Shown here: in pieces, positions 39,392 through 44,237 of the stretch
Layout: each line of letters opens with the position of its first letter
Numbering within the stretch: position 1 is the first letter of the stretch
DNA from: a virus
Taxonomy: Duplodnaviria; Caudoviricetes
Reading direction: 5' to 3' (one strand)
Length of the DNA stretch: 64,000 nucleotides
Virus record (IMG/VR): IMGVR_UViG_3300033074_000216
Coordinates: 1-64,000 of that record
Made by a program: the position numbers and the translations under genes
The notes under the pieces: generated by a model
What the model saw: only the letters and a program-made list of their open reading frames with translations
What the model was told of the DNA's origin: nothing
The model's database searches: none

Positions 39392-39694
39392 ATGGCACAA
39401 TCAAATGACATTTTAGCTTCATTAGCAGAAGCAATCGCTGCAATCAGCGACAAAAAAGCTAAGAAAAACAAAGCTACACCTAAATTCGTTTTAGTAGTAG
39501 ACGGAAAAGTTAGTCAACAAAGACCAGCTAGCAAAACTGAAGTTGAGAAAGCTGTACACGCTATCTTAATGGTTAAACCAACAAGCAAAATTGAATTATA
39601 CAAATTCAAATCTGAATTAGCAATCGCTTTACCAATCAGTGGTTTAGACGGTGAAGCTGAAGCAGAAACTTCAACAGAAACTCAAGGAGAATAA
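39392..39694 (+). CDS. 100-aa hypothetical protein, first gene of the E1/JAB/RT operon
   Basis: SD-preceded ATG at 39392. Confidence 0.7.
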   Translation: MAQSNDILASLAEAIAAISDKKAKKNKATPKFVLVVDGKVSQQRPASKTEVEKAVHAILMVKPTSKIELYKFKSELAIALPISGLDGEAEAETSTETQGE

Positions 39695-39695
39695 C

Positions 39696-39821
39696 ATGGC
39701 AGATTTCGACGTAAACGCATTAATTTCTGAAGTAACTGGTGGAGCTGACACTAGTACTACAGTTAGAATAGCTGAAGGACAAGTGTCTCAAGCAAAGGGA
39801 AAAAGTGGCGCTATAGCGTAA
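39696..39821 (+). CDS. 41-aa peptide, candidate modifier/substrate (not in ORF track)
   Basis: AAGGAG SD; MADFDVNALISEVTGGADTSTTVRIAEGQVSQAKGKSGAIA. Confidence 0.65.
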   Translation: MADFDVNALISEVTGGADTSTTVRIAEGQVSQAKGKSGAIA

Positions 39822-39873
39822 TTTTTTCAATTTAACTAGGGTTCGCCCTAGTAATTTAAATAAGGAAAAAACA

Positions 39874-41397: not shown

Positions 41398-41398
41398 C

Positions 41399-42754
41399 AT
41401 GAATTCATACATCCCAGACTACCTAGCTACTCAAGCTACGAATCCTAAGCAAAACATCTTAGGTCAACTATATCTAAACGAAGTAGAAGCCTTCCAGAAG
41501 AAATGTATGCAATCTATGACGGCTACTCCATCAGACCCAACTAAGTATTTTATTGATCCAAATACCTTAGGAACATTAGTTCCAGTTGATCCAAAGATGA
41601 GTAGTTTTGCTGAAATTACAAACAACAGAAGACCATTCGAAGGCTTCAATTATCAATACATCTTCAATAATGTTATCAAGAAAATCTTAACTCTTAACGG
41701 AACATTCTCATTCGAAGAAGCTATCGTTGAAATCAACAAGTTCAAAGAGAAAGCTGGACCTCACTTCTATGGTGCAGTTCTAAGAAAAGGTGATAAACTC
41801 ATCAATCCTTATCATATTCTAACTCCTATTAGTTATATGAAGAACAAAGAAGTATTCAACGATAAATACACAGTTCTATTATTCTTCTACTCAAACATTA
41901 ACAGTTTATTCTCTGATGGTTTCAAAAGACCAGACGCTGATAAGAAAGACAAAGAATACTGTGAAACTTTATTAAACAACATTATCAAATGTTCAAACCA
42001 TCAAGATGCTGAAGTTAAATCACCTAACAACATAGAAGGATTCTATACAAGTACTTCAATATCTTCTCCAACAGAAAGATTCACTTCTAGAACCTACTCA
42101 AGAAACTCATTTGCAGGATTAAAATATCACGTAGTACAAGCTGAAGAAATTACTGAAAAAGAATTCTTAGCATTAAACTATGTAACTCAGAACTCAGTTA
42201 GTTCATCAAATGGTGAAACATACCTTCTGTCAGCTCACCAAATCATGGTTAACGGAGTATTCGCTCCTGAGTATGGAGTATCTCTACTTAAGAAATCTAG
42301 AAGCTCACTATACGGAACATTCTTAACTCCATCAGCTTCATGCAATATCCAATCAGACTCTCTAAACAAAAGTCTGACATTCGCTTCAGTGTGTACTGGA
42401 CGAGAATCACAAAGTACCTTAAAAGGTATTTCATCTTTACATTGTTGTAACTATGCTTCAGCATACAACTCACATGCTCATTCAGACCTTTCAATAGTAT
42501 TTGCTAAAGAATCTATTGAGAAATGTACAACAATCTATGACAAAATCGGTATACTACCAAAAACACTAAAAGACACTCCAACTCCAGAAGAACTTGAGAG
42601 AATCGCTAATTTTGCAGACTACATCACATACATGACTGAGACATTCAAACTAAGTCTAATGGAAATCGAAGCAAGATACCAAACAATTAAAGGACAACAA
42701 AATGGGAAAGAAAAAGAACAAACATTTGCAAAGACAGACAGCTATGCTAACTGA
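41399..42754 (+). CDS. putative prokaryotic E2-like protein
   Basis: SCNI-x10-SVC332TG resembles the (H)xNI...VCxG active site of prokaryotic E2 families; lies between E1 and JAB. Confidence 0.4.
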   Translation: MNSYIPDYLATQATNPKQNILGQLYLNEVEAFQKKCMQSMTATPSDPTKYFIDPNTLGTLVPVDPKMSSFAEITNNRRPFEGFNYQYIFNNVIKKILTLNGTFSFEEAIVEINKFKEKAGPHFYGAVLRKGDKLINPYHILTPISYMKNKEVFNDKYTVLLFFYSNINSLFSDGFKRPDADKKDKEYCETLLNNIIKCSNHQDAEVKSPNNIEGFYTSTSISSPTERFTSRTYSRNSFAGLKYHVVQAEEITEKEFLALNYVTQNSVSSSNGETYLLSAHQIMVNGVFAPEYGVSLLKKSRSSLYGTFLTPSASCNIQSDSLNKSLTFASVCTGRESQSTLKGISSLHCCNYASAYNSHAHSDLSIVFAKESIEKCTTIYDKIGILPKTLKDTPTPEELERIANFADYITYMTETFKLSLMEIEARYQTIKGQQNGKEKEQTFAKTDSYAN

Positions 42755-44237
42755 GTATAAAACAATTTATGGCTCAGTAGGCACTACTACTCCTGCCTCT
42801 ACAGGTCAAACAAGAGCACTCGTACCAATCGATCTAAAGAATCATGGTATTATCCTACAAAAACACAGCATTATCCAGAAGATGTACGAACAATCAGGAC
42901 CAAATGCTAAATCAAACGAATTCCAAATGCATTATTGGATGTTAGTTTTCAGACATACATTCGATGATGGCGGATTCTTCGACGTAGCAGTTCCAACTTG
43001 CTATTTCAACTACGAACAATTCGTATCTGCAGCTCATGTAGACTTCGAGATGAAAGATGTATCAGAATTATCTGAGAAGTTAACTCCTCTTCATAATATG
43101 ATTACTAACCAAATCTTAGCTACAAATTTCAAAGCTGAGTTAGAAACACTATTTGGTGTACCATTTGAACCAATCTCTGTTGACGTAGGTACTCTACACA
43201 GACATCCAGGTTCATCTTACTCTCAAAGATTCTCAGGAACAGACTTAGATGCTAATACAACTAACCACGGTATAGTATTCCCATTAAAATCTGGTGTTGA
43301 TAAACCTTCATTCTCTGGAATCTTAGCTGTTGACGGAACTGAATGCAACGTAGCTCACTACGAATACAGATTAGTTAACGGTGCATACGAAACTAATGAC
43401 ATGACATACACTAAGGGTAGATGTTTAGCTATCACTTTAAACGATACTTATACTCCTCCAGTTTTATCAGCAGTTCAACGATTCTTCGGAGTAGTTACAG
43501 CTGGTGCTCCTCTTAAAACTAAAGAAGACAGTTCATTAGTTCCACAAACTATGATTCAAACTCTTAATAGTTTAATCACTTTATTACCAGATCCAAACAT
43601 CCAATTAATTAGATCTGAGAACGTGAAAACCAGGGTTACGACAACCGTTACAAGATACACAGGTGGCGGGTTCACTGGTTCATGGATTAATGGCGCTTGG
43701 GTACCGAATGCTGAAACGCCTCCTTACAAGTTAGCTATCGCTGATTACGATTATCCATTACAAACTCTTAAGTTCAATTATGAGAAACACATGAACTTCC
43801 ACAAACTTCCATTCAAAGACGAAGACATCGCTAAACTTAATAGAACTGAAATGGAAGAAAAACTAAAAGAAGTTTATGCTTACAAAGCTCCAAAGAAAGA
43901 AGAAAAACCAGAAGTTAAAGCTAATGGTAAATTCTTAGTTTGTGAAATTCTTCCTCATACAGAAGAAGAACTTGAAGCTTTAACAAGAGAAGAACTTATT
44001 GCACACCATGATGAACTAGATACTTACTACTACGGAAAAGTGTCTCCATCTATCGCTGAAACTGAAACTGACGTAACAAAACAAGAACTAATCGGATACA
44101 TCACAGAGTTATACGTTAACATCTATGATGAAGAACAAGACTCTTTAGCCGATGCTCCTGGAGTTGTTACAGCAATACCAAACACTACAGGAAGGTCTCT
44201 ATATGATTTCGCTGACTACGACGACTGTTGGAACTGA
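42702..44237 (+). CDS. JAB/MPN+ metallopeptidase with acidic C-terminus
   Basis: SNEFQ Glu, then LHRHPG-x6-FSGTD (HxH...SxxD). Confidence 0.75.
   Translation: MGKKKNKHLQRQTAMLTEYKTIYGSVGTTTPASTGQTRALVPIDLKNHGIILQKHSIIQKMYEQSGPNAKSNEFQMHYWMLVFRHTFDDGGFFDVAVPTCYFNYEQFVSAAHVDFEMKDVSELSEKLTPLHNMITNQILATNFKAELETLFGVPFEPISVDVGTLHRHPGSSYSQRFSGTDLDANTTNHGIVFPLKSGVDKPSFSGILAVDGTECNVAHYEYRLVNGAYETNDMTYTKGRCLAITLNDTYTPPVLSAVQRFFGVVTAGAPLKTKEDSSLVPQTMIQTLNSLITLLPDPNIQLIRSENVKTRVTTTVTRYTGGGFTGSWINGAWVPNAETPPYKLAIADYDYPLQTLKFNYEKHMNFHKLPFKDEDIAKLNRTEMEEKLKEVYAYKAPKKEEKPEVKANGKFLVCEILPHTEEELEALTREELIAHHDELDTYYYGKVSPSIAETETDVTKQELIGYITELYVNIYDEEQDSLADAPGVVTAIPNTTGRSLYDFADYDDCWN

Follow-up and report, generated by a model that had tools for sequence, protein, structure and literature searches.

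The window, by which we mean the whole stretch of 64,000 nucleotides analysed (IMG/VR record IMGVR_UViG_3300033074_000216, positions 1 to 64,000), comes from an uncultured phage of wastewater or freshwater and carries a compact gene cassette. Five close-set open reading frames (ORFs) lie on the + strand between 39392 and 44237, giving five genes in 4.8 kb. They encode a small protein of 100 amino acids (aa), a peptide of 41 aa, an E1-like adenylation enzyme of 507 aa, a 'middle' protein of 451 aa with an invariant cysteine, and a protein of 511 aa with a JAMM-type metal-binding motif. We hypothesise that this is a peptide-conjugation cassette, that is, a stripped-down pathway of the ubiquitin type in which a short unfolded peptide replaces the β-grasp protein. 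We give this reading a probability of roughly one half.

On the basis of the E1 fold, the gene order, the invariant residues and the C-terminal pattern of the peptide, we infer a pathway of four steps. The JAMM-type protein would trim the 41-aa precursor just after Ser37-Gly38, and the E1-like enzyme would then adenylate the exposed carboxylate of Gly38. Since the E1-like protein has no conserved cysteine, the activated peptide would pass to Cys332 of the 451-aa protein and form a thioester there, this protein acting either in the role of an E2 or as an E1 cysteine domain supplied in trans. Finally, the peptide would be moved to a target amine, which could be on a host protein, on a phage protein or on the lysine-rich 100-aa protein. 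Taken further, the cassette could be a minimal phage 'peptide-ubiquitin' system, with a tag of about 38 residues that is matured by the JAMM-type protein, activated by a Cys-less E1, held by a cysteine carrier of non-UBC fold, and ligated to host immunity proteins or phage proteins as a counter-defence. This fuller picture is tentative, and we lean against it.

Until now, work on the E1, E2 and JAB machinery of prokaryotes has treated it as host defence, in the type II form of the cyclic-oligonucleotide-based anti-phage signalling system (CBASS) and in the Bil and Bub systems. If our hypothesis is correct, the attacking virus also makes use of ubiquitin-type chemistry, and the cassette indicates how little of ubiquitin suffices for E1-driven tagging. 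In the fuller picture it would represent a new conjugation pathway, with a carrier enzyme of a new class, and would be common in phages of wastewater and freshwater; the carrier protein is recognised by no profile or fold search. The description of the cassette as E1-driven conjugation machinery of a variant kind, which is borne by a phage and combines a peptide modifier and a Cys-less E1 with a cysteine carrier lacking a fold match, is partly supported, its proven component being the E1 fold.

Gene order and the 41-residue peptide

The coordinates of all features are collected in Table 1. Related loci were fetched (62 loci, of which about 42 are distinct), and the counts given here use those with enough flanking DNA. 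The peptide gene stands directly before the E1 gene in all 28 loci having upstream DNA, the next gene after that for the E1 encodes the middle protein in 34 of 34 scorable loci, and the JAB-like gene comes next in 24 of 24. No fusions among the cassette proteins were found. This phage-borne gene set is a conserved unit. An earlier reading of the window, made from the sequence alone and referred to below as the sequence-only reading, had described the genes as tightly coupled, and this holds for the five packed ORFs as it does for their order in every scorable related locus.

Neighbouring genes overlap or are set 1 nt apart; only the peptide and E1 genes are separated by more, namely 52 nt. This intergenic region contains a hairpin with a UUCG tetraloop, which has no T-run after the stem and is not called by a terminator scan. 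Such a hairpin could determine how much peptide mRNA there is relative to enzyme mRNA, or serve as a processing site.

The three large proteins are all without a match in Pfam, PHROGs or NCBIfam, and in the PDB by sequence. When all members of the family alignments (A1, A2, A4 and A6) and the long forms were run against Pfam, just two weak ThiF matches were obtained, and PDB sequence searches with the three enzymes and their alignments gave nothing meaningful. Their homologues are all unannotated metagenomic or viral proteins. The family names used in the sequence-only reading were therefore drawn from motifs alone; the motifs are nevertheless beyond chance, because they are invariant in the family alignments.

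The peptide in the window ends in K-G-K-S37-G38-A-I-A. Ten IMG/VR loci each have an ORF of 38–49 aa immediately before the E1 gene, and over all 28 loci the homologues in this position are 37–49 aa long. When aligned, they begin with an amphipathic helix and have in common an invariant Ser-Gly, after which comes a short variable tail. The same was found in 26 further distinct peptides, which all have [K/S/A/E/G/Q]-S-G followed by a tail (1–4 residues in 25 of the 26, 10 in the other); none of the 26 ends at the Gly. In other respects the sequences diverge almost wholly, so that the Gly-proximal C-terminus is the sole strictly conserved feature.

A Ser-Gly followed by a short tail, and never ending at the Gly, is what a modifier precursor in need of trimming looks like. 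The 41-aa ORF is thus, to judge from its sequence, the candidate for the precursor of the modifier and the substrate of the E1, and would be trimmed to expose the Gly. At 37–49 residues these peptides are judged too short for a β-grasp domain, and the tag is most likely a short unfolded peptide instead of a folded ubiquitin. There is a precedent for the proposed trimming, in that the JAB domain of BubCD cuts immediately past a conserved Gly and so creates the E1 substrate (PMC11601596).

The 41-aa ORF is the universal small partner of the cassette, which is a new point of the present analysis. The sequence-only reading did list a peptide as a member of the cassette, by which it probably meant the 100-aa protein. 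A small partner does exist, but the 100-aa protein is facultative, being present in about 16–19 of 28 loci: its homologues lie directly before the peptide gene, with start and stop coupled, in 16 loci by hidden Markov model and in 3 more by eye. By eye, the 100-aa protein consists of an N-terminal amphipathic helix, a lysine-rich linker and a strand-strand-helix-strand-strand unit. The N-terminal helix of these proteins resembles that of the 41-aa peptide, and 12 of 14 distinct C-terminal tails have a Gly 1–3 residues before the end. The sole family match is to phrog_3710, of unknown function (E 5e-6). From these features the 100-aa protein may be a second trimmed substrate, or an acceptor.

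Loci lacking the 100-aa protein carry an unrelated gene of 142–268 aa in the same place. Among these is a conserved protein of 176–268 aa, with no family assigned, which ends 3–4 nt before the peptide gene and has the motif GEILLDNIE...LSRLxWWQK...GGFGLTKY (six loci in Table 1).

A short ribosomal peptide encoded next to a ThiF-like enzyme is also found in the pathways for microcin C (MccB) and pantocin A (PaaA), where the enzyme likewise has no catalytic cysteine. The cassette might therefore be read as one for a ribosomally synthesised and post-translationally modified peptide or a peptidyl-nucleotide. In such a pathway the 41-aa ORF would comprise a leader helix and a C-terminal core, and the ThiF-like enzyme would modify the core. 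The JAMM-type protein would remove the leader or follower, the cysteine protein would add a modification, and a small product would be released, such as a toxin acting on the host or on rival bacteria. We think this unlikely. The last residue of MccA is Asn, and the core of PaaP is Glu-Glu-Asn; here, by contrast, it is the Ser-Gly that is invariant and the terminal residues that vary, and an invariant Gly with a variable tail is the signature of precursors of ubiquitin-like proteins (Ubls). MccB and PaaA, with their Asn/Glu-core peptides, have no JAMM or invariant-Cys partners, and proteins of these two kinds usually partner conjugation or sulfur systems. Nor is there a transporter or immunity gene within the cassette.

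The adenylation enzyme

In the family alignment of the 507-aa protein (A1, 28 sequences, down to 26% identity) the motifs G291-x-G293-G294-x-G296 and D325-x-V-x-x-S-N331-x-x-R334 are invariant, as are K352 and R406. The AlphaFold2 model is good, with a mean predicted local distance difference test score (pLDDT) of 84.5. Foldseek searches of the PDB with this model returned Uba4, MccB, ThiF and PaaA at E of about 1e-6, and 168 chains at E<=0.001.

Profile comparison agrees with the model. A query of genomes with Cap2 had found one further Cap2, the rest being housekeeping ThiF/MoeB genes, which were taken as the E1 template; hhalign of the family against 19 such housekeeping proteins gave a probability of 81.5% and E 1.2e-5. 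The GLGGLG, DFDTVSLSNLQRQ and Lys of E. coli MoeB align with the motifs of the 507-aa family. The protein thus has the Rossmann-type adenylation fold common to ThiF, MoeB and Uba1, and this E1/ThiF-MoeB fold, demonstrated by model and profile, is the sole demonstrated fold of the cassette. The ThiF motifs pointed out in the sequence-only reading are therefore borne out. They are not easily detected by standard models: PF00899 (Pfam ThiF) does not match the window protein at E<=0.1, and matches only 2 of the 28 family members (best E 1e-5). In PADLOC, the only match of the cassette is a weak one (E 3.6e-4) of this protein to PDC-S58, an uncharacterised candidate family. A match of the P-loop to the GGxGxN of FtsZ (E 0.27) was dismissed after the fold search returned E1s.

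The conserved core is approximately residues 185–486. The N-terminal 180 residues or so are lineage-variable, and homologues of 333–381 aa exist without them. This large extra region, residues 1–180 (39874–40400 in the window), is confidently modelled over residues 10–110.

Thioester-forming E1s have a catalytic cysteine, and no invariant or near-invariant cysteine is present in the 28-sequence alignment. There is, however, an invariant Tyr442 in the loop 430–446, which from the alignment and the model is where E1 crossover loops sit. The E1 of BubCD also has no catalytic cysteine, and has an invariant Tyr370 in its crossover loop (PMC11601596). The analogy suggests Tyr442 as a possible relay residue.

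A complex prediction for the E1 core (residues 170–507) with the trimmed peptide (1–38) gave a score of 0.01, where the mark is 0.32; this speaks neither for nor against binding.

An E1 without a catalytic cysteine is also what is seen in MoeB, and the E1 domain is as close to ThiF, MoeB and Uba4 as to any conjugation E1. This raises the idea of a sulfur-carrier pathway, in which adenylation of the trimmed peptide would be followed by its conversion to a thiocarboxylate at the C-terminus, Cys332 would serve as a persulfide relay, and the sulfur would be delivered to a metabolite or to a nucleic-acid base. There are parallels in ThiS/ThiF, MoaD/MoeB, CysO/Mec and QbsE/QbsD/QbsC. JAMM trimming past a terminal Gly is established for QbsE/QbsD and CysO/Mec, so that these systems share with the cassette both an E1-like domain lacking the thioester cysteine and a JAMM protein removing residues past the C-terminal Gly. 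The location of the cassette among genes of nucleotide and RNA metabolism would also fit. Against this, the known carriers, including those of QbsCDE and CysO-Mec, are β-grasp proteins ending in Gly-Gly, whereas here there is a Ser-Gly on an unfolded peptide. QbsCDE and CysO-Mec also have sulfur-donor and acceptor enzymes, whereas Pfam and NCBIfam scans of the cassette recognised no rhodanese, cysteine desulfurase, PP-loop or other sulfur-acceptor enzyme. In addition, the S-V-C-T-G around Cys332 does not fit the CxxGxR loop of rhodanese. We consider a sulfur-carrier role quite improbable.

The cysteine protein and the JAMM-type protein

The 451-aa protein belongs to a large family, comprising 373 clusters at 50% identity in an exhaustive profile search, with no annotation. 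It gave no Pfam, NCBIfam, PADLOC or PDB profile match. Alignment of 71 diverse members (A6, down to 16–20% identity) identified G125, N136, P290, Y292, N316, C332, G343 and S354 as invariant. C332 lies within a nearly invariant S-V-C-T-G. It is the only invariant cysteine of the middle protein, and indeed the single one across the whole enzyme set (alignments A1, A2 and A6). The Cys332 that was picked out as a candidate E2 cysteine, already from the single sequence, is thus invariant in the family.

The assignment of this protein as E2-like is a different matter. By eye, the sequence F-A-P-x-Y-G...T-P-x-x-S-x-N-I...S-V-C-T-G resembles the UBC pattern F-P-x-x-Y-P...H-P-N-I...C, and the model has a β-meander before the UBC-like pattern and helices after it. 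There is no contiguous HPN about 8 residues ahead of the cysteine; instead there is P311-x4-N316-I, followed by 13–40 residues to C332, with no His there. The loops are much longer than in the UBC pattern. Alignment of A6 to two Cap2 proteins by hhalign produced no alignment, in a test of little power. A search of 401 Bacillota genomes with PF14461 (Prok-E2_B) found nothing, and therefore no E2 template could be built. The E2-like label given earlier thus keeps its invariant cysteine and lacks a UBC fold match, and we regard a UBC-derived fold for the middle protein as doubtful.

Other readings of the S-V-C-T-G were tried and rejected. A rhodanese was rejected from comparison of the sequence with the CxxGxR loop, as noted above. 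A caspase-like His...Cys dyad and a sortase TLxTC were rejected because, as judged from the sequence, spacing and context do not fit.

In the 511-aa protein, H166, H168, S178 and D181 are invariant in an alignment of 37 sequences (A2), and E73 is nearly so. The sequence pattern makes it a probable zinc protease. The templates for hhalign were three Prok-JAB proteins and thirty RadC JAB domains, all from genomes. A strand together with H-R-H-P-G...F-S-G-T-D was placed in register with the JAB motif, weakly (E 0.006–0.08, probability <6%); for comparison, the positive control of Prok-JAB against RadC gave 72%, and unrelated cassette profiles gave E 0.2. No member has a Pfam match, the phage record has no match to PF14464, and two ESM Atlas searches returned no usable match. 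The A2 and A6 profiles had no match in three genomes bearing Prok-JAB genes. The HxH..SxxD motif noted in the sequence-only reading is therefore real and invariant, but it has an unusual spacing (discussed below) and no profile match to the JAB fold.

Three lineages have the JAB-like gene in two ORFs, the break falling exactly after H-x-H-P (Table 1). Two of them (L027 and L030) have a stop, then AAGGAG or AAGGA, then an ATG 9 nt later, while in the third (L006) the pieces are separated by a spacer of 356 nt. All three second pieces begin ...F-S-x-x-D-L, and so keep the residues of the metal motif. The presumed metal ligands would then lie on two polypeptides in these lineages. The survival of the motif residues where the gene is split supports their importance; including these genes, the metal-ligand residues are invariant in more than 40 sequences.

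Residues 260–511, approximately (43480–44237 in the window), form a large lineage-variable extra region with no family or fold match. The remark in the sequence-only reading that the enzymes are long, with unassigned extra domains, is consistent with this region and with the variable N-terminus of the E1-like protein, neither of which matches a family.

Evidence against the proposal, related systems and genomic setting

Several observations weigh against a conjugation pathway. The first concerns the E1-like protein. In MoeB, the DCTD segment after strand 4 carries an Asp that coordinates Mg. No invariant Asp corresponding to that of the MoeB/ThiF segment was found in the 28-sequence alignment, so that adenylation activity cannot be taken for granted. 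In the model, the register of strand, helix and strand makes the invariant YGAP 398–401 the equivalent segment, preceded by a region whose length varies widely; hhalign gives another register, with low confidence. Secondly, VIA scores MccB and MoeB at 10.7 and true conjugation E1s at 11.9, that is within about 1 of each other, which is so close that the fold cannot separate conjugation from peptide natural-product or sulfur chemistry. Thirdly, the AlphaFold2 model of the 451-aa protein is poor (pLDDT 62.5, and below 50 in the region of the cysteine), with no Foldseek or VIA match. Finally, the JAB assignment is at the level of the motif only, and the spacing is H-x-H-x9-S-x-x-D where the canonical motif has x7.

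That no invariant Asp was found would also suit a quite different arrangement, in which the E1-like protein is a non-catalytic scaffold, the cassette forms a complex of a regulatory or structural kind (with the reverse transcriptase next to it, for instance), and the likeness to JAB and E2 motifs is superficial. It is true that no Pfam model recognises the three large proteins, and that the reverse transcriptase is the next gene in half of the loci. However, it is absent from the other half (12 of the 24 loci that extend far enough), and the residues lost in inactive adenylation domains (GxGGxG, Asp325, Arg334, Lys352 and Arg406) are here invariant. A scaffold would also leave unexplained the restriction of strict conservation in the peptide to its Gly-proximal end, and the invariance of the metal ligands even in split genes. 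We consider a scaffold very improbable indeed.

Returning to the peptide-conjugation hypothesis, the cassette can be compared with the known systems. Type II CBASS has Cap2, an E2-E1 fusion, and Cap3, a JAB protein. The phage cassette has no CD-NTase or effector, and no PADLOC match to Cap2, Cap3 or a CD-NTase; it is flanked instead by NMNAT and reverse transcriptase genes. Its E1 and cysteine protein are separate genes, and the E1 has no invariant cysteine. Cap2 reportedly activates the C-terminus of a CD-NTase, not a β-grasp protein. In the cassette the substrate would be a dedicated 41-aa peptide, and the system is encoded by the phage rather than the host.

Bil (BilABCD) is a host defence that tags a phage structural protein. 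Its E1 has an inactive and an active adenylation domain in tandem (IAD-AAD) and a mobile Cys domain, BilA is a β-grasp Ubl and BilB is an E2 of UBC fold (PMC11601596). The phage E1 differs in having no invariant cysteine.

There is also a likeness to Bub (6E/DUF6527; BubAB, BubCD and BubE; PMC11601596), which has a Cys-less E1, an invariant Tyr in the crossover-loop region, and a JAB peptidase cutting right past a conserved Gly, this last being known for Bub and proposed here. Bub, however, works with Ubls of the β-grasp type and with a UBC-fold E2 that relies on serine (oxyester chemistry); it has JAB-E1 or E2-E1 fusions and includes a DUF6527 protease. The phage cassette has an invariant cysteine in a protein with no fold match, no fusions, no DUF6527, and a peptide as the tag.

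ThiF folds carried by phages or mobile elements are known from PRTRC (the ParB-related, ThiF-related cassette) and from phage 'ThiF' genes (crAss001, Acinetobacter phage ME3). crAss001, ME3 and PRTRC_ThiF are only distant structural neighbours in BFVD (E 1e-6 to 3e-4), and the cassette proteins have no match to TIGR03734-03742 (NCBIfam, E<=0.1). A full-text literature search found work on bacterial CBASS, Bil and Bub and a comparative-genomics survey of 2006, and no phage cassette with a peptide modifier.

The proposal provides clear handles for mutation, namely Gly38, Cys332 and His166/His168/Asp181. Because the sequence of the window peptide is ...GK-SG, trypsin treatment of its conjugates should leave a Ser-Gly remnant, seen as about +144.05 Da on Lys. 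With a system this small, these handles and this remnant, the hypothesis is directly testable in E. coli.

The record is a viral contig of 81 kb, estimated to be 77% complete. Tail-fibre and terminase genes are on the minus strand at 0–10 kb, and the cassette is in the + strand early/replication region. The genes upstream are listed in Table 1; this block (32363–39314) looks like one for NAD salvage and RNA repair, as used by phages against host defences. In other phages, both of these functions serve counter-defence. By analogy, the role of the cassette is likely to be host manipulation or counter-defence early in infection, which these neighbours make plausible, although not proven. The sequence-only reading had proposed that the phage tags host or phage proteins, or jams host conjugation-based immunity; for this proposal the neighbourhood is the one source of support, and an indirect one. 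The genes downstream encode a reverse transcriptase, RusA, DNA polymerase I, primase, helicase and RNR. The reverse transcriptase is a frequent neighbour outside the core, and resembles the NCBIfam retron St85 family (E 1.6e-30, below the cut-off of that model).

Table 1. Positions of the cassette genes, neighbouring genes and related features. Positions refer to the window, except where preceded by the identifier of a related locus.
Feature	Position	Strand	Remarks
100-aa small protein ('p116-type')	39392-39694	+	ATG at 39392, AAGGAA ribosome-binding site 8 nt upstream; ORF opens with TTG at 39344
41-aa precursor peptide ORF (candidate)	39696-39821	+	AAGGAG ribosome-binding site; start 2 nt past preceding stop
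Hairpin, UUCG tetraloop, 7-bp stem (GGG-UUCG-CCC)	39835-39852	+	between peptide gene and E1 gene
507-aa E1-like (ThiF/MoeB superfamily) adenylation enzyme	39874-41397	+
451-aa middle protein, uncharacterised family	41399-42754	+	C332 in SVCTG; proposed thioester carrier
511-aa protein, JAMM-type metal-binding motif	42702-44237	+	motif in N-terminal half; proposed tail-trimming peptidase
Retron-type reverse transcriptase	44152-45060	+	Pfam RVT_1, E 6e-22
NAMPT	32363-33988		upstream of cassette
PNK/ATPase-like protein	35274-36230		upstream of cassette
GIY-YIG endonuclease	36594-37469		upstream of cassette
RNA ligase with OB domain	37438-38544		upstream of cassette
NMNAT-like protein, cytidylyltransferase fold	38796-39314		directly upstream of cassette
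Split JAB-like gene	L027:5956-7170; L030:5974-7175; L006:10023-11739
176-268-aa protein	L009:2080-2610; L034:3108-3728; L035:1742-2278; L036:9-605; L047:4194-4730; L048:3182-3988

The cassette is essentially phage-only. In a set with one genome per species, covering 185,579 prokaryote species, matches were confined to two short contigs from a single metagenome-assembled genome, and GenBank phages gave neither a DNA nor a protein match. BFVD contains one close relative, a protein from Podoviridae sp. ctiuS14 (26% identity, E 9e-23). Short metatranscriptome contigs cover parts of the cassette, including the genes for the small protein and the peptide; this coverage in RNA libraries is weak evidence because carry-over of DNA is not excluded. 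Several studies dated 2018 to 2025 contain DNA nearly identical to it, in metagenomes from wastewater, freshwater and aquatic samples.

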